This document shows positions 1,261-59,292 of a DNA stretch of 64,000 bases, one piece after another (position 1 is the stretch's first letter; every line of letters begins with the position of its first letter). The position numbers and the translations under genes were made by a program. The DNA is from a virus, in the UHGV virus genome UHGV-1351772; one strand, given 5' to 3'. The notes below the pieces were generated by a model. The model was given only the letters and a program-made list of their open reading frames with translations. It searched no databases and was not told the origin of the DNA.

Positions 1261-4200
1261 ATGGACGACTGGGACGATTTTGATGAGCCCCCTCGTCAAC
1301 AAGACCAATCGCGTAACCCGGTCATGGACACATTTCGTGCTGCCCGTAAGTCGGCGTTGTCGACTATCTGGCCCGAAAACAAACGTGATCAGGTTATTTT
1401 AAAAGGGATGCCTAAACCTGCGGCAGAAGCCTACGAAGGCTATCAAAACGTTAAAGCTGCAGGTCAAGACATTCTGGCCCATACGAAAGACGAGATTGAA
1501 AAGACGTCTCGCGTCGTCAAGATGCAAGCGAGACAGTTAGGTCCAACACTGAAACGGTATTTACCGGAATCCGTAACACGGAAAATCGACAAGTGGGCAC
1601 GTAACGATCAAATCGACTATGGGAATTACGATCCTAAACAAGCGATGATGGATCGTGAGCTGGACAGCGTGTTCTCAGGCGCACCGCAAACAGCGGACCA
1701 GCAACGTGAGGCGCAAGAGGGGATGGTTGAAGACCGCTTGCGCGACACGATTAAGGACATGAAGTCCGACGCACTGTTCCAGACCGTAATCGGTATTGCA
1801 AAAGACGTCAACTTAACGACTAGCCTAAGTCGTGGCGTGTTGTTGAATGTTCAGCGTAAGCAGTTAGAGCTGCAATATCGGACGCTGTTTGCTTTGCAGG
1901 ATATTGCGAAACTCAAACAAGACGAGTTTGCACGCAACACCCCGGCATTAGAAGCCATCGTTAAGAACACGGCACTACCCGACTACGCGAAGGAAGAGTT
2001 TTCTGAAATTCGTTGGGCTAATGTAAAACGTAAAGCTGCGGAGTGGATGAACCCCTTACACTACGCAGATAATTTCATTGGCCAGATTCGCGAAAACGCG
2101 AAGAAGAAAATCTCGAACATCTTTAGTGATGGTCGTGGGATTCTAGAACAAGTTCTAGGGATGGCTCAGGAAGATGACTTTGACATGTCGGACAGCTCAT
2201 CGTTGTCTCCTGACCGTCGTAACACAAACTCGCGTAATAAAGCGGCAGGTTTTGCAGGTGGTTGGTTAGCAAAACGTCTCTTACAACCCCAGATCGAACG
2301 ACTTCAGAACTGGACGCGTGGCGAGCTAGAGAAAAACCCAGAAGTCATGAAACGCCTACAGTTGGCGAAGTATGGCTTTGGAAATTTGTCGTCTATTTCT
2401 AACTCGGCAATAGCGGGAGAAACAAGCGGTCCGTTAGCTGATCTGTTTCGACTAATGCACGATTTGGGACTAGTTAACCCGCTACGTCGCGAAACCTTAG
2501 CATTAGACGATCGTTCTGCGGAATCTCTTTCTGCGGCGGCGAAGTTCGATCGTAAAGCTTACCTTAGTATCACAGAAGTTATTCCGACGTTACTGTCCGA
2601 GATTAACAAATCTATTCGTCGTGGGTATGGCGAACACCACGATCAGGTTTATGACCTGACCACGCGCGGTATGGTGGATCGCAAAGTTATTGGTAATCGT
2701 GTACGTAAGGCCGTTGCTAATGACGATCAGCGCAAACGTTTACAGACGTACATCAACGACACTGTCGACTTTATCGATAAAGATAAAACGCTCGATAGGA
2801 AAACACGTCAAGCGTTAGCGGACTACATCGAGTCTCGTGCCTCGGAAGGGAAAGCGTTCGATGTAGGGTCTTTATTGAAAGACCCGATGCACATGTATCG
2901 ATACATGAACGCAAACGCTGTGGAAGCGATTCAGGGTGTTTTAGAAGCCCGTTCTGCGGAACTGGTTGGCGGACACCATGAACTGAGTAATGCGATTTCA
3001 AACAAAATCGCCGCTATCCAGTCAACGATTCGTGCACGTCAAGACACGGTTGATGCTGCGTCTGTGATTTACGGCGAGAACGCACTTCGTGATTCCGGTA
3101 TTTTTAAATACGATGCGAAGAAAGACATTTTCGAGGTCGATAAGGACATTAACGATCCCTATACGTTATTTAATGACCTGTCGATGGGTAAGACCCGCTC
3201 TGGACGTTCGTTAACCCGTGAGCAAGAGATTCAGCGTAAATTGCAAAACGGTTCTGCGCTGGGTGATTACTTGCGACGGATGGGTGCAGGCGCAGAGCCG
3301 AGCTTTGAAGACAAAGAACTGTCCAATGTACGTGGCGGTGGAAAAGGAGGTCGTGGTCGCGGTTTAAGCGCACGCCAACTCGCTGCGGTACTTTATGGAG
3401 AGAAATCCACTAACTTTGTTGAACTGTTAAGCAGTCGTCCAGACACGAACGCCGGGTTGGAACAGCAATTCGACCGTTTGATTGATGCTGTACGTAAACA
3501 GCCCGAATCTAGCACAGTGCAAGATATCCTCAAACACGTTAAGAACATGGATGAGGAAGGTATTCTCCTAGCCAGTTTAGGCGGTAGTCGTGATGACGGT
3601 GACGAATCTGAAAGTTCGAGTGACTCGGGTCGTAAACGTCGTCGTAAACGCAAACGTATTGTGCTAGGCGAGACAGGCTTGTTACGCCGTTGGGCTGGGG
3701 TGCTTTGGGATACCGGTTCAGGTGTAGGGCGGTTTGGTAAGAATCTGTTCCTACGTGGGAAAGATCGTCTGCAGGCTTTAGGTGGTTTTATCCGTGGGAA
3801 ATTCTCAGGCGGCTCCTCCGAAGGACCCGGTGTATTTAGCCGACTGAAAGGGTTAGTAACAGGTACTCTATCGACAGGTTGGAATTCTGCTGTAGCTTTC
3901 GGTAAAGGCGTTTTAGGTGTTCGTGATATTTACGATGAACGTGGCAACGTCGTATTACAAGGAAGTCGTTTAGAAGCTGGGGAATATTACCAGGCTGACC
4001 CGAAAACTGAGAAGCTGATTCAACTTAAAACCCTCGACGATATTAAACTGGGACGTGATATTGTCGATGAAGCGGGTAATTTAATCTTAGCTGCTGCTGA
4101 TTTGGCTGCCGCAGGTAAACTGCGTTTCTACAAAGGTGGTAAAGTTCAAGCGCTTTTCCAGTACATTTCTGGGAAAGCAGGAACGGCGGTAAACAAAGCT

Positions 4201-7200
4201 GTGACTTTACCGAAGAAACTTTTAGGCTTCATTTCACCTAAAGCGGCTTCGTTGTTCGAGAAAGCACGTGAGTGGCTAAATGAGGTTCCAGAGGGCGCAG
4301 AGAAAACCCGTTTACAAAGCATGATTTCCCGTGTAACGGGAATGCCAGCGCGTTTGTGGAACAATGCAAAACGCGGGTTTGAGAAGCTCAAAGAGTTGGC
4401 TTCTGATAACCCTCTGACACGTTGGTGGCAGAACCGTAAGGAAGGGGGTTCTGGTGGTGGGTTTAGTGTGTTCTCATGGTCGAACGGCCGTAAAACTAAC
4501 CACATCTTAATCCGTATCTACAAACTCCTTAACCGGAGATTGCCAGGTGAACCAGAAGATGATACCTGGACAGAACAGATGGAGCGGAATACGGGAGCCA
4601 GTTCAGTTAAAGGATTATTCCAACGTGCTAAAGACATACGCGATGGGTTCCGTGAACATTTTCAGGGGTTCCGGGATTGGCGCGGTCGGATGCGTGACAG
4701 AATGTCCCGTTATCGCGGTGCGGTAGGCGATCGTCTTTCTCGTTGGGGCGGTACCGCACGTGGTTGGTTTGATCGTTTCCGTGGCCGTGCAAGCGATATG
4801 GTCGATACTTTCCGCGATCCGCGTTACGATATCGGCACACGTTATCGAATGGAGAGTCGTTTAGCAGGACGCGATGACGATGTTGCTGAGTTTTATCGTC
4901 AACACATCTACGCAAGAGGTAAGGTGTCTAAAACACGTATCATCGATGCGGCAAAAGAAGACTTAGACACCGTAACGGATAGCGCTGGACGTGTGATTAA
5001 TAAAGGGAAACAGAAAGCCCGTAGCGTTGGGTCAGCTTTACTGGAACGCCTGAACCGAATGGTTAATCTTCAGGAAATGTCATGGTTTAACACCATGCGT
5101 GATTCTGCGGAAAAAGCAGGTGCTTCGGATGGTTTGTTAAGAACTATGTTCAGTAAGTTCGGCCAACGCAATAAACCGCCTGCCAGTGATGAAAAACGTG
5201 ATTACTTCCAGTTCTTCCGACGCCGTCGTCGTTCTAAGGAAGAGGAAAAGGCTAAGAAAGAAGCCGAGAAGAAAGGTGGTAAGCGCGGGGTGATGGATTT
5301 CCTTAAAGGACTGCCGTTGGTAGGACCGATTGTGAGTATTTTAGGCACAGTAGGTTCAATCTTAGGTAAAGTCGCGAAATGGGGAATCTTTAAGCCGGTT
5401 GGGTTTGCAGGCAAAGCGTTGTGGAACGTTGGTAAGTTTGCTGTGACTCGTTTGGCTGTCCCTGCGGTGAGTGCTGTCGCGACGGCAGCATCTGCAGTGG
5501 TAACTGCGGTTGGCTGGCCGATTATCGGTTTGGTCGCTGCAGGCGCTGCGCTATCTTGGTTTGCATATAAAACTGCAACCCGTGTGAATGCTCAGTATTT
5601 GGATAACATGCGATTGGCACAGTACGGATTTAGAGATCACGATGAGTGGTCTTCCGACGATGGCGCAAAAGCACGTTATTTAGAAGACAACTTGAAACCG
5701 TACATCTCTTATACAGAGAATGGCCAAGCACAGTTGCGTGGTTTGTCCGGTGACGACGTGAAGAAACTGGCCGAAGGGTTTGGTACTAACGTAGAAGACA
5801 AAGGCGAAATGCTGGCGTTTAGTGCGTTTATGCTACAACGTTTTGTGCCGATCTATTTACGTTGGATTACGGCACTGAAATCCATGGATAATGATATCGC
5901 GTTAGCAGATGTCGGTAATCCTGCGAAAGTGTCGAAGGCAGACATGTTGAATATCTTCAACAAAATGAAGATGTCGAAAGATGCGCCTGCATTCCGTGCA
6001 TTAGAAGATCCCCGCAAGGTTAACCAAGGTTGGTTCTCTAAAGCGTGGGATTTCGTAACGTTTACCCCGGCCGAGTTTTTGTCAGGCGAAGAAGTCGTTG
6101 AAGCGCAAGAACGCGTGCTTCGTTCGATTAACATGCGTCGTGATGAAAAACGTAAGGATGTAAATGCTACAGGCGGTGTGGCCGAAGGACACAAAGTTGC
6201 TTCTGTGGCAGAATCGACCCAAGCGTTGGCTCAAGCGGATGCGGAACGCAACAAAGAAGTTGCGAAAGTCGAAGGTTGGGAAGACGGCACCGAACAAGTT
6301 CAGGTTCAAGTCGACTGGAGAAGCTTACCTAAAGAAACCGATCTCCGTGATTTGGAGTCCGTAAGGTTGAAAGCTTATGGTGCGGTGAGTATTACTCAAA
6401 CAACCCGTAACCTCTATACGCTCTTGGAACGTCAAGTGTTGCAAGACACCGATGTGAAAAGCTGTACGTATAAAGGCGACTGGAAACGTGCGATTGCGGT
6501 GATTGCGCCTGACGCCATTGGTGGGCCAAAAGAAGATCGGTACAAGAACTGGTTCTATAACCGCTTCTTACCTGTCTTCATGACGTACGTGGTTGGGGTG
6601 AAACGTTATGTCCCTGCTGCCGATCCGATGGACCTACGCGTTACGGGTGGGTTCTTGTATGAAATCGCACTGATGATGCGTGGTGCATACAACCTGAAAG
6701 GGGGTATTCGTCAGTCAGTGTGGGAGGTACCGTTTAACCCGTTAGGGGGAGACGCTAACACCGACGCCGGTTCAGTTGCAACGGAGTTAGAGAACCTGAA
6801 AGAACTGTCTAAGGAAGCTGATTTGGCAGTACGTAAAACGCTGCGTGCTACGCCTTCTGCGGGTTTCCGTGTGAACTGGCAGCGAAAAGATCGCGCGACT
6901 CAGATGTTCTTGACCGACGATGAGAAGGAGCAACCGTCTCGACCACAGATGAACACCTCCTCCTCTTATCGTGACCTATTGCAACCAGCGGCAAACGACG
7001 GTGGGAATTACGGCACACCAAACGATTTGGCCGGTGCTTACGGTCAGATGGGAGCTAAGAATTACGCTGCATTTACTACCGGTAACTTCGGCGTGAAACT
7101 TGGCGATATGCAAGACGGTGACTATAAAACGTTAGCGGCTAAGTATCCAATTTCAACGTTGGGTGACGGATTGAAGCCTAACTTGAATGCGGTTGCAGCA

Positions 7201-8337
7201 CTGATTACAGACGTAGCGAAGATGATGGGTGTTCCTCCAGCGTTAGCACTGGGAATGGCACAAGCAGAATCTGGGCTTAGATACGGTATCAAAGCTAAAG
7301 GAAGTTCTGCGGCTGGCTTGTTCCAGTTCATCAACGATACCTGGGGTGCGCAGATGAAAGCTTATGCGAGACGTTATGGTATCCCGCAAACCAACCAGTA
7401 TGACCCGTGGGCGAATGCTCTGCTTGGCGTCCGTCATATTCGTGATAATATCGAGAAAGCCAGAAAGGATTTAGGTGGTATCGATCCTCCAGGTGCAGCT
7501 GTTTACCTCTACCACTTCTTAGGACAAGGTGGCGGTAAGAAATTCCTGCAAGAATGGAAGCGTGATCCGAACGGGCCATCGTCGCGTGGTGCGTCGGCCG
7601 ATCAAATCGCGGCAAACAGCACAATTTTCTACAAGAATGGAAAATTGCGTAGTTTGGATGAAGTGCTCAACATCATGGGTGGTAAGATTGGTGCTGTAGG
7701 AACAAACGCGATCGCGGCTAACCAGGCATCGCTGAAAGACTTGACGACAGGCGTAACACCAATGCCGTCTTCCCCGGCTATCGCTGCAGGCGCTGCTAAC
7801 GATCCGTCTATCACAGGCCCGGCAGATAACCTGCCAGCCGCGAACGAGGCGAATCGCGACTCCGCTTTAGCAGACAAAGGCGCGATGGGTGCTGAAGATA
7901 TTAAAGCTGCAACTGGTGGTGGTCCGGCTGTGCCGAGTCCTGGCGGCGATGTCACGCCGAGCGATGCGTCAGTTGTTGTAGAGACGGTGGGTCAAAATGC
8001 ACGTGCTGATGGCCTGGCCGAAGAAGAGGTTGCTAAAGTAAAAGAAGGTGCTAGACAGCAGATGGAGAAATCGGCCCGTCCTGCACCAACGGTAACTTCC
8101 GATGCTCAGAGCGGTTCTACAGTGAACAGTGGTGATCCGATCAGTGTACAACAGCTGGCGGTTGCAAAAGAGTCTGCAGGCTATCTGAAAGAGATTGTAA
8201 CAATTCTTCGCCAGCGGCCACAGGCTATGCAAAACGGTCCGGCTAACCCGGCGTCAACCGCTCCGGGTTCGGCGTCACGTAACGTGTCAATAACTCAACC
8301 CGCGCCGCAACTCGACGTTAGTCGTAAATCAGCGTAA
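1261..8337 (+). CDS. Giant virion-associated protein (2358 aa) with lytic transglycosylase domain; tail lysin / tape-measure-like
   Basis: Single uninterrupted ORF. Long helical N-terminal half with Gly-rich and basic RKRRRKRKR segments, hydrophobic cluster about aa 1335-1440, SLT motif near aa 1980-2100, Ala/Pro/Gly-rich C-terminus. Size and domain order resemble phiKZ gp181-type tail lysins (from memory, not searched). Confidence 0.8.
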   Translation: MDDWDDFDEPPRQQDQSRNPVMDTFRAARKSALSTIWPENKRDQVILKGMPKPAAEAYEGYQNVKAAGQDILAHTKDEIEKTSRVVKMQARQLGPTLKRYLPESVTRKIDKWARNDQIDYGNYDPKQAMMDRELDSVFSGAPQTADQQREAQEGMVEDRLRDTIKDMKSDALFQTVIGIAKDVNLTTSLSRGVLLNVQRKQLELQYRTLFALQDIAKLKQDEFARNTPALEAIVKNTALPDYAKEEFSEIRWANVKRKAAEWMNPLHYADNFIGQIRENAKKKISNIFSDGRGILEQVLGMAQEDDFDMSDSSSLSPDRRNTNSRNKAAGFAGGWLAKRLLQPQIERLQNWTRGELEKNPEVMKRLQLAKYGFGNLSSISNSAIAGETSGPLADLFRLMHDLGLVNPLRRETLALDDRSAESLSAAAKFDRKAYLSITEVIPTLLSEINKSIRRGYGEHHDQVYDLTTRGMVDRKVIGNRVRKAVANDDQRKRLQTYINDTVDFIDKDKTLDRKTRQALADYIESRASEGKAFDVGSLLKDPMHMYRYMNANAVEAIQGVLEARSAELVGGHHELSNAISNKIAAIQSTIRARQDTVDAASVIYGENALRDSGIFKYDAKKDIFEVDKDINDPYTLFNDLSMGKTRSGRSLTREQEIQRKLQNGSALGDYLRRMGAGAEPSFEDKELSNVRGGGKGGRGRGLSARQLAAVLYGEKSTNFVELLSSRPDTNAGLEQQFDRLIDAVRKQPESSTVQDILKHVKNMDEEGILLASLGGSRDDGDESESSSDSGRKRRRKRKRIVLGETGLLRRWAGVLWDTGSGVGRFGKNLFLRGKDRLQALGGFIRGKFSGGSSEGPGVFSRLKGLVTGTLSTGWNSAVAFGKGVLGVRDIYDERGNVVLQGSRLEAGEYYQADPKTEKLIQLKTLDDIKLGRDIVDEAGNLILAAADLAAAGKLRFYKGGKVQALFQYISGKAGTAVNKAVTLPKKLLGFISPKAASLFEKAREWLNEVPEGAEKTRLQSMISRVTGMPARLWNNAKRGFEKLKELASDNPLTRWWQNRKEGGSGGGFSVFSWSNGRKTNHILIRIYKLLNRRLPGEPEDDTWTEQMERNTGASSVKGLFQRAKDIRDGFREHFQGFRDWRGRMRDRMSRYRGAVGDRLSRWGGTARGWFDRFRGRASDMVDTFRDPRYDIGTRYRMESRLAGRDDDVAEFYRQHIYARGKVSKTRIIDAAKEDLDTVTDSAGRVINKGKQKARSVGSALLERLNRMVNLQEMSWFNTMRDSAEKAGASDGLLRTMFSKFGQRNKPPASDEKRDYFQFFRRRRRSKEEEKAKKEAEKKGGKRGVMDFLKGLPLVGPIVSILGTVGSILGKVAKWGIFKPVGFAGKALWNVGKFAVTRLAVPAVSAVATAASAVVTAVGWPIIGLVAAGAALSWFAYKTATRVNAQYLDNMRLAQYGFRDHDEWSSDDGAKARYLEDNLKPYISYTENGQAQLRGLSGDDVKKLAEGFGTNVEDKGEMLAFSAFMLQRFVPIYLRWITALKSMDNDIALADVGNPAKVSKADMLNIFNKMKMSKDAPAFRALEDPRKVNQGWFSKAWDFVTFTPAEFLSGEEVVEAQERVLRSINMRRDEKRKDVNATGGVAEGHKVASVAESTQALAQADAERNKEVAKVEGWEDGTEQVQVQVDWRSLPKETDLRDLESVRLKAYGAVSITQTTRNLYTLLERQVLQDTDVKSCTYKGDWKRAIAVIAPDAIGGPKEDRYKNWFYNRFLPVFMTYVVGVKRYVPAADPMDLRVTGGFLYEIALMMRGAYNLKGGIRQSVWEVPFNPLGGDANTDAGSVATELENLKELSKEADLAVRKTLRATPSAGFRVNWQRKDRATQMFLTDDEKEQPSRPQMNTSSSYRDLLQPAANDGGNYGTPNDLAGAYGQMGAKNYAAFTTGNFGVKLGDMQDGDYKTLAAKYPISTLGDGLKPNLNAVAALITDVAKMMGVPPALALGMAQAESGLRYGIKAKGSSAAGLFQFINDTWGAQMKAYARRYGIPQTNQYDPWANALLGVRHIRDNIEKARKDLGGIDPPGAAVYLYHFLGQGGGKKFLQEWKRDPNGPSSRGASADQIAANSTIFYKNGKLRSLDEVLNIMGGKIGAVGTNAIAANQASLKDLTTGVTPMPSSPAIAAGAANDPSITGPADNLPAANEANRDSALADKGAMGAEDIKAATGGGPAVPSPGGDVTPSDASVVVETVGQNARADGLAEEEVAKVKEGARQQMEKSARPAPTVTSDAQSGSTVNSGDPISVQQLAVAKESAGYLKEIVTILRQRPQAMQNGPANPASTAPGSASRNVSITQPAPQLDVSRKSA
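5305..5570 (+). other. Hydrophobic/transmembrane-like segment cluster inside the giant protein
   Basis: GLPLVGPIVSILGTVGSILGKVAKWGIF...AVPAVSAVATAASAVVTAVGWPIIGLVAAGAALSWFAY: several consecutive hydrophobic helices. Confidence 0.5.
7198..7572 (+). other. SLT (family 1 lytic transglycosylase) domain within giant protein
   Basis: GMAQAESGLRYGIKAKGSSAAGLFQFINDTWGAQMKAYARRYGIP ... LYHFLGQGGG: E-S catalytic motif and GLFQF..TW pattern typical of lysozyme-like lytic transglycosylases. Confidence 0.7.
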
Positions 8338-22787: not shown

Positions 22788-24284
22788 TTATTTCTTTTTC
22801 GTCAGGAACTTCGGTTCTAGTCCATCGACAGCCATACCCAGAATGGTACGTGCAGTCAGTGTACGTTTACCACCTTTGGTTTCCTGGTCTTTAAACATCC
22901 AGTATTCTACCGTGTTGTCCAGAATTTCATTCCAGTCCCACTTCTCGTCAATCATTTTGTAAATCTCACCCATGCTGAGATGATACTTCATTTCAAGACG
23001 ATGGTAGTTGTTTTGCATATAAGCAATTGCCGCCGTGATCTCTAAAGCGCGACGTAAGCGTGCGTTATCAGAAATCATATCACGGATTGTCGTGCGTTGG
23101 AATTTCACACCAGGTAGAATGTCCAGTTCTTTGATGGAGCCGCCACTACCGCTTGACGTAAAACCAAAGTCTGACTTCTTCAGCGTGTCACTTAAATAGT
23201 GCCACAGGCTCAGGTGATATAACAGACCCATTTCCTGAGAGAAGATCATCTGGAATTTCACACCAGTGTGACCACCCTTCGCACGATACTGAGTAAAGGT
23301 GATAATCTTCAAGTCGTTTACCGAAGCATTCATCGCTTTAGAACGTGACGTCGGATAAAGTTCTTCGTTAACACCGGTCTGCGCGTTATAGCTCTGGTCT
23401 TTTTTCAGCTCCCCTGATTTCGTCGCGACGATAAAAGAGTTTGTTAAAAAGCTAAGCTGACGGCGAGGAATACCTGCGAATTTTAAATCGTCGTTGGCAT
23501 CGTCAAGAATTTTCGCATTTGCTTTTTGTGCCTGACGGCCACCTGCCATCGCTTTCCCAGAGTCATCGGCCATCTGTGCCACGAAGCCCATGTAAAAACC
23601 ACCACGTGCAAACGCAGACGGCCAGCGGCTCATCATATTCGATTTTTGCAGCGCATCGTGGGCGTTCAGGATGTTCTGATCAGAATCCCCAATATCCGTT
23701 TTTGCGTGCTTGTCTTCCAGCGAACTGGAATGCCACTCTGACAGGGAGTCGATAGAATAAAGCCAGGGGTCCAGGATTTCTTTTAACTTACGACGAACCG
23801 GATCGGGGAACGGTGTTACGCGGGTTTTACCAGACATATACTGTTTGAAGCGTTTTTCAACTTCATCACGAATATAATCACTGTAATACTGTTCCCCAGG
23901 CATTACGTCAGAACCGACCAGGTTATAACGACCTTCGTGGATAAGTTCCAGTACGGATGTTCCGTCGTCGATACCGTTGGCGTTCATGGCAGAGATGTAC
24001 CCAGTTTCTAAACGATCGAGGGCAGCTGACACTTCTGTATCGTACTTAGAACCCCACTCTGCTTTATAACGTTGCAGGATTTGGAAAATACAGAAATCTA
24101 ACAAGGTGGATTTAAAAGTGTTACCGCGCCCTGCGAAACCCATGATGTGGGCAAAACCACCGTTAAGGTAGTACAAACCATCTTCACCTTTTTCGTAGTT
24201 ACCTAAGGCATGATCCATGATGGTGTAAACGTTAAAACGTGGACGAATTACTTCACCGATAACTTGCTTAGTTGGGCCTGCCAT
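22788..24284 (-). CDS. Hypothetical protein, 498 aa
   Basis: ATG 24284 with GGAG SD; GRGNTFKST is not a canonical Walker A; no confident assignment. Confidence 0.65.
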   Translation of the reverse strand: MAGPTKQVIGEVIRPRFNVYTIMDHALGNYEKGEDGLYYLNGGFAHIMGFAGRGNTFKSTLLDFCIFQILQRYKAEWGSKYDTEVSAALDRLETGYISAMNANGIDDGTSVLELIHEGRYNLVGSDVMPGEQYYSDYIRDEVEKRFKQYMSGKTRVTPFPDPVRRKLKEILDPWLYSIDSLSEWHSSSLEDKHAKTDIGDSDQNILNAHDALQKSNMMSRWPSAFARGGFYMGFVAQMADDSGKAMAGGRQAQKANAKILDDANDDLKFAGIPRRQLSFLTNSFIVATKSGELKKDQSYNAQTGVNEELYPTSRSKAMNASVNDLKIITFTQYRAKGGHTGVKFQMIFSQEMGLLYHLSLWHYLSDTLKKSDFGFTSSGSGGSIKELDILPGVKFQRTTIRDMISDNARLRRALEITAAIAYMQNNYHRLEMKYHLSMGEIYKMIDEKWDWNEILDNTVEYWMFKDQETKGGKRTLTARTILGMAVDGLEPKFLTKKK

Positions 24285-25497: not shown

Positions 25498-26397
25498 TTA
25501 TTTCCCACGATAAAATCCAGAAATGTAACTCGGCGCTATCCATCGCCATTCGCGCCAGCGCATTTCTGACATCTTACCACACCATACACGCTTCCAATGC
25601 GCACGACGGATATGTGCGGCGCAATAAATCGCCAAACAAACCTCGTGTCCTTCCTTGCGTTGCTGTTCTATATCTTCCCATTGTACCGGACTTACATCTA
25701 AAACGACTGCTTCACTACGTGGGCGAATCTCTGTATCGGGAACATAACGAATGGTCCTTCCGCGAAATTCTTTCTTCTCACGTTCAGTACGTTTAATTCG
25801 TGACGAAAGGTATAGTCCGATATAGACAGCGTCGAGTAGTCGTTGATTCTCCTTAACCGAAATAAGGAGCGGCTTTAGCTCGACGAAATCATCTTTACTT
25901 TTATCGATTTTGTAAATCTCAAACTCCATGTATACCGATTCTTCACGTTCTTCGCATGACATCACAAAGAGAACTTCTTCGCCTTCGTAAAGACGTCTTC
26001 CGATAAATAACGTGATTGGACTTTCGTCGAGATTTACAGTAACCGAGAAAGTAAATGAAGGGATGGTTTCTATCCAGAAGTACGGGATGTTTTTTAGTCT
26101 CTCAGTTTTTGCTAAGAGTGCCATCAGTTCTTCATCCGAGATGATTTCAACAGCAGCGTATTGCCATCCTAGTCCCAGGGACTGCTTAATCAGTCTGGGA
26201 ATCTGTTCGGTAACGCCATACTCTCGATAGGTCGGATCTTTAACTGGCATAAACGTTACGGGTATTTGACGTTTATGCTCGTTAATGAACCGAATAAAGC
26301 GGCACTGATCTAATCCGTGAATTGTTTGGTGTGCCTTTTCTATTTGTTCGCTCATGCGTCTTAGCGCTTTCCCGTAAAGTCTATTATTCGTTGTCAT
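25498..26397 (-). CDS. Hypothetical protein, paralog A of a basic Trp-rich C-terminus family
   Basis: Start moved to ATG 26397 (AGGAG SD; MTTNNRLYG...). C-terminus AAHIRRAHWKRVWCGKMSEMRWREWRWIAPSYISGF matches paralog B. Confidence 0.6.
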   Translation of the reverse strand: MTTNNRLYGKALRRMSEQIEKAHQTIHGLDQCRFIRFINEHKRQIPVTFMPVKDPTYREYGVTEQIPRLIKQSLGLGWQYAAVEIISDEELMALLAKTERLKNIPYFWIETIPSFTFSVTVNLDESPITLFIGRRLYEGEEVLFVMSCEEREESVYMEFEIYKIDKSKDDFVELKPLLISVKENQRLLDAVYIGLYLSSRIKRTEREKKEFRGRTIRYVPDTEIRPRSEAVVLDVSPVQWEDIEQQRKEGHEVCLAIYCAAHIRRAHWKRVWCGKMSEMRWREWRWIAPSYISGFYRGK

Positions 26398-26422
26398 TTT
26401 AATACTCCTAAACACTTTTAGC

Positions 26423-27349
26423 TTAATTGTGGGGTACGTAGCCACGGACAAATGTAGGTGGAATCCAACAAAGTTTTCTCTTTCTTTCACCATTTCTAGG
26501 GCCGACCCAATATCTGCGCCAGTGAGCGCGACGGATGTGGGCAGCCTTAGCATGTTTGATACCCTGCATGGTTTTCAAGTCAGTGTTAAACCCTTTTAGA
26601 TAATTCACTTGTCCTGGCGTGATATCTATCTTAACATCGCGTTCACGAGGTTTAACGTCGTAGCTAATACTACCGTTCTTTTTGATTTCTTTGAACTTAA
26701 TATCATTAAAAGACTCCCTGTAATTGGGCGGGATTAGCGTACACAGAAATATCATCGAAGTAGCGGCTTTGGCCAGAGATAACCATAGCATCTTTTCTTG
26801 TTCGTTCTCCACACCGTCGGCATAGTCGATTTCCACAAGCCCGTTTCCTGCGCTACGAAGCTCTAACGAACAAGTGGCAATTGTGGTAACGCCTTCTGTT
26901 AACCCGTAATCAGTATTTGTAGCAATTATAATAAACCTTCTCTTCCCGTTTTTTCGATAGCCGAGAAAGAAAGTCTCATCCTCTTTACCTACGTCGATTG
27001 CTACAGTCCAAGTAGGTATAAAGTCCAACCATTCTTCAGGGAATTTACTGGGCATCTCAGTCTCGAAAACAAGTTCTCTAAGTGCTTGGTTGGATATTAA
27101 GGAAGCACCACCGTATAGCCATCCAATTGCCAATGTTTGAGCGTGAAGGGAACGGGGATCTTTGAGACCTAACTCAGCGTCGTAAGGTATAAAGGCATTG
27201 GTTAAATGGTTACGATTCTTTTTTATCCATTTCGAGACAGGATTTTCCTTTATTCGGTTTTCTTCCATGACATTTTCAAGATGCTGAGACCCCATTTGTC
27301 TAAGGCAGTCTTTAATACCTTTTACTTTTTTACTTTTGTACAAATACAT
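26423..27349 (-). CDS. Hypothetical protein, paralog B of a basic Trp-rich C-terminus family
   Basis: ATG 27349 with AGGAG SD; C-terminus AAHIRRAHWRRYWVGPRNGERKRKLCWIPPTFVRGY; internal similarity to paralog A. Confidence 0.6.
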   Translation of the reverse strand: MYLYKSKKVKGIKDCLRQMGSQHLENVMEENRIKENPVSKWIKKNRNHLTNAFIPYDAELGLKDPRSLHAQTLAIGWLYGGASLISNQALRELVFETEMPSKFPEEWLDFIPTWTVAIDVGKEDETFFLGYRKNGKRRFIIIATNTDYGLTEGVTTIATCSLELRSAGNGLVEIDYADGVENEQEKMLWLSLAKAATSMIFLCTLIPPNYRESFNDIKFKEIKKNGSISYDVKPRERDVKIDITPGQVNYLKGFNTDLKTMQGIKHAKAAHIRRAHWRRYWVGPRNGERKRKLCWIPPTFVRGYVPHN

Positions 27350-27895: not shown

Positions 27896-28420
27896 TTATT
27901 GTCCTAAAATTGGGGAGAGTTTGTCTGCGGTGTTTAACAACGCTTTTGTAATTTCGTGGTTGGTCTCTTTTAGGATGGCGCAACAGAGAGTGGTATAAAC
28001 CTCGATTGCTAACGCGATTTCTTGTTCAGTCAGGCACGGTTCGGTACCGTCAATCCCGTAACGTTGCGCCGCATATTCAATTTCAAGTTTCAAACGTTTT
28101 CGTAGTGCCTCATCGTTAGTTAAACGCGTACACGCCCGATCGAAACGTCTATTGTAAGCCTCGATCTTGTGGACAATTTCGCGTCGCAGTTGGTCGACAT
28201 TTACGTTATCATCAAGAGTGATGGTGACGTTGTCAACTAAACAGTAATGTACTGTGTGTCGTAAGTTGTGTAATGTGGCGACAGTAACGACCCGCTCCTG
28301 ATGGTCGCTAAAGCCATGAGCACCACAGAGCTTGCGTGCAACCGCGCCAGAGATTTTCTCCTCTAACGCTATCGGCGTGGCAATGGTTGTTTTCTTACGA
28401 AGCTGAATTAAAATATCCAC
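27896..28420 (-). CDS. Hypothetical protein, 174 aa
   Basis: GTG 28420 with AAGGAG SD. Confidence 0.55.
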   Translation of the reverse strand: MDILIQLRKKTTIATPIALEEKISGAVARKLCGAHGFSDHQERVVTVATLHNLRHTVHYCLVDNVTITLDDNVNVDQLRREIVHKIEAYNRRFDRACTRLTNDEALRKRLKLEIEYAAQRYGIDGTEPCLTEQEIALAIEVYTTLCCAILKETNHEITKALLNTADKLSPILGQ

Positions 28421-28422
28421 GA

Positions 28423-28965
28423 TTATACTCCTTTAGGTTGACCGTATTTTGATGACAGGTAGATGAGCTCGGCATGGCAGATTTTCTCAACTAACCCGAG
28501 TGTTTCAAGGAAAATATCCCGGATACGGGACATTGTTTCGTTGGTAAGAATATCGCTCCAACACGTTGTGTCTATTATATCCGTCGTTGAAGATTGCCGC
28601 TGCAATATGGCGACATACACTTCGTCGAGGGTATCTGGAGCATTATTCTGTAAGTAATGCGCGGCATGTAGAAAGGCTTTCTCAAGAATCAGGTGAATAT
28701 CCGTATCGGGATCAGTTACCCGCACCAAATGTGGGTATGTCATGGCCGAATGGATTTTTCGCTCTAACTGTTCAATGAGATTATTCACCATCGCTTCTGA
28801 ATCCAGGATAGTAATTTCGACCCCACTGTGTTCTTCAGAAATCTTGTTCTCATGTACTGCTATCGCGTCGTGCAGTTCAAACGCAACGCGGCTACGCATC
28901 CCACTTAACAGTTTGTTTAATTTACCCCGTGACTCGCTGAGTGAGAAATCGATAAGTATTTTCAT
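28423..28965 (-). CDS. Hypothetical protein, 180 aa
   Basis: TAATG overlap with upstream gene. Confidence 0.55.
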   Translation of the reverse strand: MKILIDFSLSESRGKLNKLLSGMRSRVAFELHDAIAVHENKISEEHSGVEITILDSEAMVNNLIEQLERKIHSAMTYPHLVRVTDPDTDIHLILEKAFLHAAHYLQNNAPDTLDEVYVAILQRQSSTTDIIDTTCWSDILTNETMSRIRDIFLETLGLVEKICHAELIYLSSKYGQPKGV

Positions 28966-29708
28966 TATGCATATTCCTGATAAATTGCCCGACCCCGATC
29001 TTCTCGAATCTGGCAGTAAGTTACAACAGCACCATTAGGGATTTGTGCTCCGCTGTCTTCAAGGTAAATAACGCCCGTAGCTTCACAGAGATAAAACGAC
29101 CACAATCGTGAGATACCAAGCCGTGCGTTCTCGTAGTCACTGAATGGCCAGAAACCACAGTGAAGCTCAACATAGTCTCCACGTTCTATCCCGTAAGCAA
29201 TCAATTCTTTTTCCCACAACGTACATTCGGCGTCGTAAATCGAAAACCAGAAACCAACGAGGTTCTTTGTTTGTTTAACGTTGAGCAAGTCGTTATAAAT
29301 GGGGAAGAGTGCTTTATTGAAACTTTCTAACATCTCTGGAGAGAATAGAAAATTCATGTAGTATTCTAGCCATTGATAAACGGCCTCCCAGACATCTTCA
29401 GAAGAGAAATGTTCGAATACAGCGTCATCGCAATCGTAGTTATCGAAGATCCCTGAGAGATCTATTTCGACTACGCCGCGAAGGTCAAAGTTTCGGTTGG
29501 TATTGACAGCCTCGATAACTTCGGAGATGAGACGAGTAAAGACGATTGTGCAAGCCGTCTGTGCGGTATAAAAGAATTCTCCTTGTACGGTTGACCACTT
29601 CGGGTCCTTCAAGTGTTCATTGAAGTATTGTGGCCAAATTTTATAAAAGATTCCCTCGAACAACGAGGGATTGATACGTTGTAATTGAGGGACATAAACT
29701 TTTAGCAT
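28965..29708 (-). CDS. Hypothetical protein, 247 aa
   Basis: ATG 29708 with GGAG SD; GATAATATCT element 29-38 nt upstream. Confidence 0.55.
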   Translation of the reverse strand: MLKVYVPQLQRINPSLFEGIFYKIWPQYFNEHLKDPKWSTVQGEFFYTAQTACTIVFTRLISEVIEAVNTNRNFDLRGVVEIDLSGIFDNYDCDDAVFEHFSSEDVWEAVYQWLEYYMNFLFSPEMLESFNKALFPIYNDLLNVKQTKNLVGFWFSIYDAECTLWEKELIAYGIERGDYVELHCGFWPFSDYENARLGISRLWSFYLCEATGVIYLEDSGAQIPNGAVVTYCQIREDRGRAIYQEYA

Positions 29709-29736
29709 TTTAATAACTCCAATGGTGTTACACCTG

Positions 29737-29746
29737 GATAATATCT
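29737..29746. promoter_or_regulatory. GATAATATCT element (candidate promoter -10 region for gene starting at 29708)
   Basis: Exact 10-mer; same spacing to the minus-strand ATG as at 20621. Confidence 0.35.
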
Positions 29747-30413
29747 ATCTAAGAATATTTTTAGCGAAAAAAGGATCGACTGTAAACTCCCTCACCTGTG
29801 AGTCATAACCCGAATGTATCTGATCGCTACTGAGCAAATACCCGTCTAAATCGTGTGGAAGAATCCAAGAATCGCCTTGTTTAAAAATACCATAATCTGT
29901 TGTTCCAGAGGAAAAAACGATTTCCTCTGGAGACGAATAGATGTGGCGTAAGGCAAGATCTGACGGCTTTAACACGATTAATCGAACGGGATGTTGACTG
30001 ACTGCCTCTTTAATAAACTGTTCACGATTAAACCAAATTATTTTTTCGGGGTAAGTTTCGAATTCAGCCCATGTCCGCGTGATAACTAATTTGGAAATCT
30101 TTCTCAATTCTTCAGAATGCTCTGCGTAGCCGATACACTCCTTGCGCACTTCATGATTTTCTACCGATGCTGTGAATTTTTGGAATAGGTGTTGTTGGAA
30201 AAAGCCGTTCTCCGGGATATCACAACCCGCGTTGTATAGTGCAATGATCTCCCACAACAACGAAAGAGAAAACACAAATGCTAACTTTTCCACAACTTCC
30301 CAATCTTCGGAGTAAGGGGCTTTAAAGCCCCAATACTGCCGTGCGTTATACATAAAGTGAGTTTGTAAAAACCGAGGGGCTTTTGACAAGACCTCACTAT
30401 AAACGATCAGCAT
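29745..30413 (-). CDS. Hypothetical protein, 222 aa
   Basis: ORF in array; 7-nt overlap with upstream gene. Confidence 0.55.
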   Translation of the reverse strand: MLIVYSEVLSKAPRFLQTHFMYNARQYWGFKAPYSEDWEVVEKLAFVFSLSLLWEIIALYNAGCDIPENGFFQQHLFQKFTASVENHEVRKECIGYAEHSEELRKISKLVITRTWAEFETYPEKIIWFNREQFIKEAVSQHPVRLIVLKPSDLALRHIYSSPEEIVFSSGTTDYGIFKQGDSWILPHDLDGYLLSSDQIHSGYDSQVREFTVDPFFAKNILR

Positions 30414-31927
30414 TCAAGCTCCTTATCCGTCAATATTCGTTTGTTTGAATAATAGCCGCACCACAACCCATGATATTTTTCCCCAATATAAACCAACGCG
30501 TACTCGATATACTGCCGTTCTGGACGCCGTACCGCCACGTAGAATCGTCCTTCTGGTTCTTTCATACGGTTGATTTCCGTACGCGTCGGTATGTCGATAC
30601 CACGAGTAAGGATAGTTTTAACCTTGTTTTTACTACCAGGGATATGGATGGTTACGTCAAAACCTTTATCTACGTTACGATAAAAATCTTTCTTCGGCTT
30701 ACCTTTCTCATCGTAAAGCAGGTCAGTAATGTCGTTCATCACGACTGAGTTTTTCCCTTCCATGGCATCGCGTAACCAACCTGCAAGCTCATCACGAATC
30801 GTAATGCAGCGATAAGACAATAACGCGGGACGAAGAATTCGTGTAATCGAAAGATCTTCAAACATCCATAGGTTTTTGTCTTCGCTAAAATGCATCCGAT
30901 CGACAGGAATACCGTTACCTGCGGCTTCTGCGAACTTCTTACGTTTTACGAATAAGTTAAAAACAACGGCGATGGGATCAAACTGACGTAAACGGGGCAC
31001 CCCTTCCCACGCTTTCGCAGAGTGGGTATTTACCAACTCGTATACGTTGTTCCATGGTTCTTTGGTAAACATTACGCAGAATTGCGCGTCTGGAATGTAC
31101 TTACCAACGAAGACGATATCGTCCTTCTGTTTTGCATGGTTCCCACCGAACATGTAATAAAGTTTATTACCGTTAACTGTAACAGTGGGATGCGGTTCGT
31201 TCACCATCGGGTAACAGAACTTCGTAACACAGATATCGGGAAAAGCAGACAAATTGACGCCTTCACCAACAACTTCTGGTTGCTGATCTTCCTCAGGCAT
31301 CTCGTCTTTTGACCAATACGGTGTATAGTCTAGCCCATCGCCTCGTGCCGAGATACTTGAACCCTTCCGTGCTAACTCGTCGGCACGCTCGTTTCCATAA
31401 CGTCCTGAATGCCCTTTAATTTTAAGGACACGAACACCTTTCCCTTCTTTCTTTAACCGCTGTTTAACCTCCCACATCCGTTGGATTAATTCCAAGTTCG
31501 CAATGGGCGTACCGTCTGCGCGACGCCAACCGCGTGCAGCCCAACCATCAATCCAATCGTTATACGTGTTGACAACGTAAGATGCGTCGATATAGATAAC
31601 ATAGTTTTTAGCAACGAAAGGTGCATGTTCGAAAACGGTCAGGAAAGCCACGAGTTCTGCAACGTCGGAGTGTGACATTTTTGGTACAGGCACAACACCG
31701 TCAATAAACTCCACAGCTTCTGGTAAAGATGGAAGTTTTTCATCCTTGTTTATCTGGCGGTATCCTGACGTCGTAATCCCCTCGGGAATAGAGGGATGGC
31801 GGTAAACCCGACCATCCTCAATCGTTTCACGATTAAATAAGTATCCATGAATCCCCGCTCCTGTACCGAGCGGGGAGGTCAAATGGCTACCATCCGTGTA
31901 AATTACTGCAACATCAACGTTCTTCAT
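30407..31927 (-). CDS. RNase HI domain fused to a ~310-aa C-terminal domain of unknown function
   Basis: 506 aa; N-terminal VAVIYTDGSHL..GTGAGIHGY, SDVAELVAF, IDASYVVNTYNDWIDGWAARGWRRADGTPIANLELIQR, KGHSGRYGNERADELARKG match the RNase HI DEDD plus His catalytic set and surrounding motifs. Confidence 0.85.
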   Translation of the reverse strand: MKNVDVAVIYTDGSHLTSPLGTGAGIHGYLFNRETIEDGRVYRHPSIPEGITTSGYRQINKDEKLPSLPEAVEFIDGVVPVPKMSHSDVAELVAFLTVFEHAPFVAKNYVIYIDASYVVNTYNDWIDGWAARGWRRADGTPIANLELIQRMWEVKQRLKKEGKGVRVLKIKGHSGRYGNERADELARKGSSISARGDGLDYTPYWSKDEMPEEDQQPEVVGEGVNLSAFPDICVTKFCYPMVNEPHPTVTVNGNKLYYMFGGNHAKQKDDIVFVGKYIPDAQFCVMFTKEPWNNVYELVNTHSAKAWEGVPRLRQFDPIAVVFNLFVKRKKFAEAAGNGIPVDRMHFSEDKNLWMFEDLSITRILRPALLSYRCITIRDELAGWLRDAMEGKNSVVMNDITDLLYDEKGKPKKDFYRNVDKGFDVTIHIPGSKNKVKTILTRGIDIPTRTEINRMKEPEGRFYVAVRRPERQYIEYALVYIGEKYHGLWCGYYSNKRILTDKELEC

Positions 31928-54956: not shown

Positions 54957-57900
54957 ATGGCTGTCGTCCTAGACCCACACTTCAAAAAACCGGGGAATAA
55001 AATAACCGGTGAAGCGGTCGCCGTCATTGGTACGAAATACCGAATGTTGGTACCTGCCCACGCCCCTTTTTTCACCACATCCCTGGTGGTCAAGAGCGGC
55101 GGCAAAATACTGACCTTAGGCGACGATTACGTTATTACACACCCGTACGAGACCGGTATGTTGCGCACAGCCTATCTCATTCACGGGATGATTTGGATTG
55201 TTAATGACAAATACAAATCGAATTTTACGGTAGATTACCACGCCGTTGGTTGTGGTCAGGCTACCCAACAACAGATTACCGCAGAACGCGAACTCAATAA
55301 AGATAAATACCCGTCTGCGTGTCAGTGGGACACCGTCATCGGGGACGTTTACTTTCCGCCGGTCGATATTCAGTTCGATTGGGAGAATTGGAAAGGTGAA
55401 CTGGAATTAATGCAGGCTATTGCTGGATTAGGCGATTCGTTAGGGGAAGTCGTGAGTCGGCTTAACCCCATCGCACGCAATACCCTGGATTTAGAATACC
55501 GTGCTAATAGCAAGGTTATCACTTCCGAGCAGTATGCCGTATACGACAATAAAGGTGGCTTCACCTACAACACTGCCCGTCATCGTTATAGCTTGAGTTA
55601 TAAAACTGCAACCTTTAACGACTACGCCCTGTCAGTGAAACACAGAATTCCTGCTATTCTGCCAGACATGACGAAATTGAATCCAAACGAACAGATCGAT
55701 TGGATGCTCTGTTATGCTAACGGCGGTGCAAGTATTCTACGGCTGCAGCTAAAACAGCGCAAAATCTCACTGGTCTTAACGGTCGCTATTGGTAGCGGTT
55801 CAACAAACTACGATTATACGTTAATCAACGGTTTAACTGACGATGAGTTAAAAAACGATATCGATTTTAGTGTAACCCGTCAACCCGGAAACGGTGTTTA
55901 CGTCATCGTAGTAAAAACAAATAAACAGACCATGGATTACACATTCAACGTCGATACACCGCCTGATGAGTTCTCGGCAGGGTATTCGAAAACGGATGTT
56001 GCTAAATGGTTGAAGTTTAAAACGAACATTAATTTAAACTGGTATGCGGCCGAAAACGATTATATCCAAATTCGTTCTTTACCCGGCGCACCAGAACCTG
56101 ACGTCGATAACGATGTTTACCAGTTAATAGTTAAATATCATCAGTTAGTTGAGCAGCTGTATCGTAACGCGCCTGCACACGAACACGTTACACGTAAGGA
56201 CAACCCGCACACCGATACGTGGGGTCCGATCCGTGCGTTAGAGCTGAATGGTATTGCGTCGGATGCCGCGTTAGCTTACGGGAAAACGAAACAACAGTTA
56301 ACGGATTACGTTAATGCTAAGTACCCAACACAAGCAACGTTAACCGCACAGAAAAAATTGCTTCGTGAATCGGCGAGCAAGAACGTTAACGGCACGATTA
56401 CCACACTTCCGGGTTTTACTTCGTTCACGACGGAAGTTGATCCGGTTTCGATGTCGAAATACGTGAGTCCTTATTTTAGCGAAAGCTATGTTAGTAGTGG
56501 ACACAGATATCACGGTGCGCTTCGTTACACAGGAACGAAAAACGGTTTCAGTGCTAACTTTAATGCGGTGCCTGCCAACCTGCAAGATATTGACTTTATT
56601 GTTACTGGACGTAAGACAGCATCCGGTAATGAAGCGGTCGGTAGGGTTGGTTTACGTTTCTACGAAAACCCGGGTAGTAACTCCGGTAAGTTCGTAGAGA
56701 TTACTGGCCAAATCTGGGGTGGTACCCTTACTATCAGTCTGACATTGAACGGTTACGGGAGTCCGTTACCGTCAGTACGTTATATTTCTCAAGCTCCTAA
56801 TCCGGCAATACCGGATGGGGATTTTACGCTACGTTTTCAACTGAAGCGTACAGGGAACGTGTTTAACGTCGTTATTACCGTAAACGGTAAAACGTATAGC
56901 GGTCGGATTAACTTCGATAACATGGACGCTGCGTTAGAAGCATTAGAGAATCAGCACCACTTTAAATCGCTGATCAATAATGTTGCTGACGCCGTCACTA
57001 TTAGTTCGCAAAACAAAGGTAACACGGTTACCATTAAGAAAGCACCGGATGTTGTTGATGGGGTTCGCTTAGGTGCCCAGTTTGTCGTTGATCCGAAATC
57101 CATTAAGTTTATTGGCCAAGGTTCAACTGATGTTAACGTAGGAAATAACCCCGTAACGTTCCAAGCAGGTACTAACCAGCTTATGTTGTATCCTGATGAT
57201 CGTGGGTTACAGTGGCGTGGTAAAAAACTCTTAGACCCCACCACCGTGGCCCCGTATCTACCAGGCAATACCGCAGGTGGCACAGGTTTATTCTACGCAA
57301 GTTCGACAACAACGGTTACGATCACCGGTAGCGGGATAAAAGCCTCGCCGTTCGTAGCGACCTTTATTCTTCCTACCGCGACCGATACAACAGCTCTGGC
57401 AGCTTGGCAGTTGACCGATGAGTTCGGTACCGCTGAAAACCTTGCAGCAACGCCAGCACTGATTGAAAAACTCGATGCGGAGTTCACCGGTAAGTTAGTT
57501 GCAGTTAAATCGTACATTAACGACATGCAACTTACCAGCTCGGTTACTATCGATAAGATTACCTTTGGTTTAGGTAATGTTGCGAATACGCCCGATGCCG
57601 ATTTACCGATTTCTACAGCACAGCGTGCGGAGTTAGATAAATACTCGCCTAAAGTTCACCAACACCCGTTTACCGCTTTTGGTACTGGGAACGCAACCAC
57701 AGCGCAACGTGGTCTGATTAAATTTGGTCTGGATGTGGATGATGCGACTTTAGCACTCGATGGGAGTGTGGTAATGGCGCAGACTTCTCAGATTGAAAAA
57801 TTGGAGCGCGCTGTCAGCGGTGTTGACTCGGAGGCACGTCTTGACATTATACGTTTTGGTGAGTCTGGTAACGACTTAATAGACCTTACGGTCAAAGACA

Positions 57901-59279: not shown

Positions 59280-59292
59280 GGAGATTTTTTTG

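Follow-up and report, generated by a model that had tools for sequence, protein, structure and literature searches.

The minus strand of the virus genome UHGV-1351772 encodes a protein that begins as an RNase HI and continues for about 310 residues in which no motif had been recognised, which raises the question of what this second part is and why it is joined to a nuclease. The preliminary description of the gene expected the additional domain to direct the RNase H to a specific substrate or complex, such as a replisome or a defence-generated RNA–DNA hybrid. The analysis covered a stretch of 64,000 nucleotides, referred to below as the window, and the coordinates of the features are collected in Table 1.

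Table 1. Features of the RNase HI fusion gene and of the adjacent exonuclease gene in the window
Feature	Coordinates	Strand	Basis
Complete gene, 506 codons and stop; ortholog of PhiKZ gp155 (Nlp2 / Rhc)	30407..31927	-	ORF list, phrog_3265, BLASTP
RNase HI domain, aa 1-~208; D12, E91, D114, H173, D183; E. coli-type basic protrusion WIDGWAARGWRRADGTPIANLEL	31304..31927	-	
Family-specific insertion of ~40 aa (aa ~32-72) between RNase H beta2 and beta3	31712..31834	-	D12-E91 spacing, model, homologs
Predicted flexible acidic linker, aa 209-235, net charge -7	31223..31303	-	Low pLDDT, pTM, homolog comparison
Predicted sliding-clamp-fold domain, aa 236-506, net charge +7	30410..31222	-	
DEDD exonuclease, 244 aa	31930-32664	-	Pfam Rv2179c-like 3'-5' exoribonuclease, E = 2.5e-11; phrog_255 'exonuclease'

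The ORF list contains the whole gene as one reading frame with an ATG start, 506 aa long and without an internal stop. The DNA at the domain junction is in frame and unbroken, codes for an acidic low-complexity segment (SKDEMPEEDQQPEVVGEG), and contains neither a stop codon nor a plausible internal start. A homology search yielded about 55 full-length proteins of 486–552 aa, with identities down to 23% and the same single-ORF architecture, and the PHROG family phrog_3265 ("ribonuclease") matched residues 1–504 to positions 2–496 of its 496-position profile (E = 5.6e-170). The unbroken ORF, the architecture common to the homologs, and the end-to-end phrog_3265 match rule out a frameshift or a gene-calling artefact. 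The gene is therefore a single fused one, as first described, rather than two genes of which the C-terminal region would be the second, and the same fusion is present in all full-length homologs. Only 2 nt separate the stop codon of the upstream gene from the ATG, and the 3' end of the gene shares 7 nt with the next ORF downstream (29745..30413), indicating that the gene is part of a tightly packed operon.

The Pfam family RNase_H (PF00075) matched aa 81–190 with E = 4.9e-21 and a score of 75.8 bits, compared with a gathering threshold of 25.8. A profile of 43 homologs was aligned to E. coli RNase HI by hhalign with a probability of 99.7% (E = 4e-25), and in this alignment E91, D114, H173, and D183 correspond to E48, D70, H124, and D134 of the E. 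coli enzyme, while D12, located in a TDGS motif, was placed at D10 by a phmmer alignment; the numbering of the E. coli catalytic residues is well established. The protrusion segment given in Table 1 was aligned by the profile to residues 81–103 of E. coli RNase HI. A PF00075 match above the threshold, the DEDD(H) residues, and the basic protrusion together assign the domain to RNase HI. The five catalytic residues are kept in 42–43 of the 43 homologs at more than 75% sequence divergence, D12 being absent only in one N-terminally truncated entry. Judging from these alignments, the RNase HI domain is catalytically complete and looks active, and the D, E, D, H, D set attributed to it in the preliminary description was borne out by Pfam, hhalign, and phmmer placement. 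The short strand surrounding the invariant W205 seems to pack against the RNase HI domain.

The single internal insertion noticed earlier was also found and could be located more precisely, as about 40 aa between beta2 and beta3. The spacing between D12 and E91 is 79 residues, compared with 38 in E. coli RNase HI, and ranges from 70 to 96 aa in all 43 homologs, so that the insertion is always there and adds about 32–58 residues. In the AlphaFold2 (AF2) model, aa ~32–72 are confidently folded (pLDDT ~95), and the BLASTP alignment shows that the insertion is shared with PHIKZ155 of phage PhiKZ. Candidate roles for it are contact with a polymerase, contact with an import factor, and substrate selection.

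The segment that follows the nuclease has a pLDDT below 50 at aa 209–222, and the pTM of the AF2 model is 0.57 for the full-length protein, in which both domains are confident, compared with 0.86 for the C-terminal domain alone. Among the homologs, the length of this segment varies and its composition is acidic. The model thus points to a disordered linker through which the RNase HI and C-terminal domains would be flexibly joined.

The C-terminal domain is invisible to sequence methods. For the remaining ~310 aa, Pfam at E ≤ 1 returned nothing beyond a noise-level match to BNR_3 and no clamp family, and PDB searches with phmmer and the 43-sequence profile found RNase H chains only and no match to the C-terminal (clamp) region, in a set without the PhiKZ Rhc cryo-EM structure. 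Alignment of the two C-terminal halves to each other for internal duplication was uninformative (hhalign probability 0.2%). A fold search with the model of this domain retrieved several bacterial beta-clamps, archaeal and eukaryotic PCNAs, KSHV PF-8, and HCMV UL44, with HSV-1 UL42 further down the list; only ~140–177 residues superpose on clamps, at 4 Å rmsd. The domain is accordingly modelled as a sliding-clamp fold of the two-domain protomer type. The C-terminal region is conserved as well as the nuclease, with invariant W205, Y239, G262, K276, L381, and T401 and many near-invariant positions, and 17 positions are conserved as K or R, including K266, K276, R329, R373, K410, R449, R454, and R497. 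We propose that the clamp-fold domain could serve as a processivity module binding both DNA polymerase and duplex DNA.

A search of 1.84 billion representatives with a profile of the C-terminal domain revealed 1,058 representative clusters, 822 of them at E ≤ 1e-10. Among the best 150 of the 1,058, the domain nearly always starts at residue ~200–260 of a protein of ~480–560 aa, and the shorter proteins are explained as fragments lacking their N terminus or as sequences that begin at the edge of a contig. As possible stand-alone clamp-like proteins, P0138 and P0177 were rejected, both starting at the edges of short contigs, as were P0074, P0093, and P0123, which retain RNase H tails; all five are fragments. 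No evidence for a clamp-like domain without RNase H was found among these best 150 of the 1,058 clusters. The fusion, like the RNase H active site, is conserved throughout the family and appears to be obligate. The longer proteins among the best 150 have an extra N-terminal module of the GIY-YIG / I-TevI type: in metagenomic homologs of 668–752 aa (P0077, P0091, P0162, and P0164), a GIY-YIG catalytic and/or an I-TevI-type DNA-binding domain precedes a complete RNase H–clamp protein. Either these are real fusions with a homing endonuclease, or the frame of a homing-endonuclease gene upstream simply continues into the RNase H–clamp gene.

BLASTP against the "ribonuclease" of Phikzvirus KEN19 aligned aa 5–494 of the protein with aa 3–476 at 25% identity (E = 4e-30), and the KEN19 protein is 100% identical to PHIKZ155 of the PhiKZ reference genome AF399011. 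Full-length homology, an intact N-terminal RNase HI, and a flexible linkage between the domains were all found, as expected for the Rhc/gp155 family, to which, rather than to the canonical ring clamps, the protein belongs. By this homology, the gene encodes the ortholog of PhiKZ gp155 (Nlp2 / Rhc), a genuine and already explained feature. The two proteins have in common the RNase HI with its insertion, the linker, a C-terminal domain of ~270 aa, the position near a UvsX-like recombinase gene, the phage family, and an equivalent catalytic Asp: residue counting in the BLASTP alignment pairs D114 of our protein with D102 of PHIKZ155, which is altered in the D102N mutant. They differ in that identity is only ~25%, that the linker is longer and strongly acidic here, and that, in the clade considered here, a DEDD exonuclease gene absent from PhiKZ-like phages lies upstream of the gene and is translationally coupled to it.

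PhiKZ gp155 is a bona fide RNase H that cleaves RNA–DNA hybrids in vitro (PMC12571901). The protein is located in the phage nucleus, its GFP-tagged form appearing, as PicA does, as a punctum at the edge of the nucleus, and its gene is co-transcribed with small neighbours (PMC12571901). When gp155 is knocked down, maturation of the nucleus and amplification of the phage genome both stop, the second effect being seen for the orthologs of both ΦKZ and ΦPA3; the D102N variant, although devoid of RNase H activity, rescues the knockdown completely, so that the essential function is nuclease-independent (PMC12571901). Import of Nlp2 (gp155) goes via Imp1 and needs specific Imp1 surface residues (bioRxiv 10.1101/2024.03.27.586873). 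According to the abstract of a further study (PMC13648687; bioRxiv, 1 Oct 2026), two subunits form the PhiKZ polymerase core in a 1:1 ratio, the clamp domain of Rhc binds this polymerase, and cryo-EM puts the domain on the polymerase with DNA, where Rhc, as a single subunit, holds the emerging duplex together with the polymerase thumb. The same abstract reports that Rhc strongly boosts primer extension via the clamp-domain interface, that its RNase H domain is flexibly linked, and that chimalliviruses have no identified clamp loader. It names Rhc without a gene number; we equate Rhc with gp155 because PHIKZ199, the sole other PhiKZ protein annotated as RNase H, has only 143 aa, for which reason PHIKZ199 was rejected as the published Rhc.

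The earlier remark that the C-terminal ~310 aa hold no recognisable motif remains correct for the Pfam and PDB searches, but the region can no longer be called uncharacterised, given its clamp fold and the published work on the PhiKZ ortholog; as an RNase H accessory domain it is known only as part of the gp155/Rhc fusion family, which has since been described. The fold search independently supports the clamp relationship, by structure prediction, in a clade ~25% identical to PhiKZ. RNase H activity, essentiality, complementation by D102N, nuclear import, and polymerase binding and stimulation are known from the literature on the ortholog, and we infer by analogy that they may extend to the present protein at ~25% identity.

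The "DNA polymerase" core genes PHIKZ050 and PHIKZ082 each matched 290 phage records with identical organism and host tallies, the two polymerase halves occurring together in the same records. Among these are the relatives nearest to the window, namely SPAsTU, SPFM phages, SPN3US-like phages, and many Erwinia jumbo phages; no homolog of either gene was present among the ORFs of at least 200 aa in the 64-kb window. Following the mechanism of PhiKZ gp155, the protein is probably, and we hold this with considerable confidence, the polymerase accessory subunit of this phage. It would be made in the cytoplasm and then imported into the phage nucleus, where a single copy of the C-terminal clamp-fold domain would bind the split B-family polymerase (DNAP-N and DNAP-C). 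Together with the polymerase thumb, this domain could hold the duplex DNA leaving the active site, leading to more DNA synthesis, and such binding of polymerase and duplex by the basic clamp-fold domain would be the essential role, for which nuclease activity is not needed. Held by its acidic tether, the RNase HI domain may remove RNA from RNA–DNA hybrids around the fork.

The link to the replisome foreseen in the preliminary description is thus retained, both by the clamp fold and by polymerase binding of the PhiKZ ortholog, as stated in the abstract of PMC13648687, but the logic of steering is probably inverted, because the essential function of PhiKZ155 is still provided by its D102N variant, mutated at the equivalent of D114 here (PMC12571901). 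By analogy, what is essential in the protein seems to be the clamp-like domain, with the RNase H as a tethered accessory. The opposite emphasis, in which the main job is removal of RNA from RNA–DNA hybrids, whether Okazaki primers or R-loops, and the clamp-like domain is merely a tether to the replisome or DNA, appears unlikely; for R-loops, the setting would be a compartment in which replication and transcription use the same template. Such a role agrees with the cleavage of RNA–DNA hybrids by PhiKZ155 in vitro (PMC12571901), with the retained E. coli-type basic protrusion, with the lack of broken fusions among the homologs examined, and with the near-universal catalytic residues at the divergence given above, which imply selection on catalysis. 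It is at odds with the full complementation by D102N (PMC12571901) and with the report, in the abstract of PMC13648687, that the protein itself strongly raises polymerase activity through the clamp-domain interface. This emphasis is largely compatible with a polymerase subunit and differs only over which domain is primary. Since the active site is perfectly conserved although dispensable in the laboratory, its preservation suggests that the nuclease matters under natural conditions.

A much less probable explanation is that the C-terminal domain is mainly a module for nuclear import or nucleus maturation, docking with PicA/Imp1 at the nuclear shell, and not a polymerase subunit. The Imp1 surface residues required for import of Nlp2 (bioRxiv 10.1101/2024.03.27.586873), the PicA-like punctum of tagged PhiKZ155, and the block of nucleus maturation upon knockdown (PMC12571901) would fit this role, but the arrest is accounted for by failed genome amplification (PMC12571901), and the abstract of PMC13648687 places the domain on the polymerase with DNA. 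The clamp fold, the 17 conserved basic positions, and the net charge of +7 suit binding of DNA or polymerase better than a pure import signal, and being imported as cargo does not conflict with a role within the nucleus.

Finally, it is extremely unlikely that the domain, despite its fold, is a conventional ring-forming clamp protomer of the PCNA or gp45 trimer type that encircles DNA and depends on a loader, given the limited superposition, the absence of matches to clamp Pfam families, and the three RNase H domains that would be tethered to each ring, for which we know of no precedent. In addition, the protein is not filed as a canonical clamp because its PhiKZ ortholog is described, in the abstract of PMC13648687, as one subunit that works together with the polymerase thumb and does not form a closed ring, in phages for which no clamp loader has been identified.

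For the polymerase accessory subunit proposed here, the closest working analogue would be the herpesvirus UL42-type processivity factor, which has a clamp fold and is loader-independent. There is no detectable sequence relationship to HSV-1 UL42, HCMV UL44, or KSHV PF-8, and these factors have no nuclease domain and serve single-chain rather than split polymerases. The similarity to T4 gp45, PCNA, 9-1-1, ASFV E301R, and the bacterial beta-clamp is structural and distant, and, unlike these ring clamps, the clamp-fold domain has an RNase H attached. E. coli RnhA and human RNASEH1 have the same catalytic domain, with the DEDD and His residues and the basic protrusion, while the extra ~40-aa insertion distinguishes that of our protein from cellular RNases HI. 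Like eukaryotic RNase H1, the protein is multi-domain with a flexible linker, but its accessory domain is C-terminal and clamp-like, whereas that of RNASEH1 is an N-terminal hybrid-binding domain.

Nucleus-forming jumbo phages replicate in a protein shell without a recognisable sliding clamp or clamp loader, and the RNase H–clamp fusion is the recently proposed answer to how the split polymerase gains activity. The family was characterised in 2025–2026, and the gene in the window, which raises no new question on its own, is a divergent addition to it, ~25% identical to the ΦKZ protein and 67% to that of the nearest catalogued phage. It illustrates that the clamp fold can be recovered in a distant clade from sequence and structure prediction, and that database labels such as "ribonuclease H" and "hypothetical protein" overlook the polymerase-accessory domain.

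A megablast search of 8 kb around the gene against 50,697 phage records gave no match, which indicates that no close DNA relative has been catalogued. At the protein level, the best matches were gp226 of Erwinia phage Asesino (67%), SPN3US-like Salmonella phages (64%), and Kwan (57%), followed by more distant full-length matches to RAY (25%) and PhiKZ-like Pseudomonas phages (24–25%), the PhiKZ-like records having one match apiece. A 98%-identical protein (P0001) is encoded on contigs from public assemblies, the longest being 176 kb. The genus Erskinevirus, which includes Asesino, is classified in Chimalliviridae, and the source phage appears to be an uncatalogued member of the SPN3US-like / Erskinevirus clade of this family of nucleus-forming jumbo phages. 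Jumbo-phage-type genes in the window encode a UvsX-like recombinase, an SbcC-like nuclease, thymidylate synthase, and MazG, to which the tail-fibre-like protein and the giant virion proteins described below can be added. The gene order, comprising a divergent virion structural gene, the RNase H–clamp gene, and a UvsX-like recombinase gene a few kb downstream, is common to Asesino, SPFM19, RAY, and a Phikzvirus. No support for a defence-generated RNA–DNA hybrid, one of the targets considered in the preliminary description, and no context pointing to a defence or anti-defence role were found around the gene.

The exonuclease gene immediately upstream adjoins the RNase H–clamp gene in Asesino, SPFM19, and Kwan. 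It matched only 64 phage records, belonging to an SPN3US-like / Erwinia / Cronobacter / Vibrio clade, with no PhiKZ-like phages among them. Relatives of this protein are labelled 'putative endodeoxyribonuclease', which disagrees with its Pfam family. A functional tie between the exonuclease and the clamp-like subunit is a conjecture, and we consider it rather improbable that the enzyme is a further clade-specific partner of this subunit, acting at the replisome as a trans-acting proofreader or as a trimmer of RNA primers or 3' flaps; no description of it as such a partner was found in the available literature. If true, a monomeric remnant of a clamp would carry two nucleases, the exonuclease and the tethered RNase H, as a 'tool-belt'.

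Several other features of the neighbourhood were observed. Directly downstream, packed or overlapping genes follow in the same orientation (29745–30413, 28965–29708, 28423–28965, and 27896–28420, all minus strand; phrog_9472 and phrog_8219); these had no Pfam matches, and the run 27896–30413 is syntenic with Asesino gp227–gp23x. Two ORFs at 25498–26553 and 26423–27349 (minus strand) both match phrog_6160 and form a tandem paralog pair, whose overlap of 131 nt, as listed, suggests an over-extended downstream start codon. The UvsX-like recombinase gene (22788–24284, minus strand; phrog_97, E = 1.5e-55), ~6 kb downstream, occupies the place where PhiKZ has gp152 (Nlp1, RecA-like), another import cargo of the phage nucleus. 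A search of the 64 kb for tRNA genes found none. On the plus strand, 1261–8337 encodes a 2,358-aa tail-fibre-like protein with a C-terminal transglycosylase region, and 54957–59279 and 59290–63474 encode adjacent giant paralogous virion structural proteins of 1,440 and 1,394 aa, which have phrog_7557, 8078, 7449, and 2163 in common.
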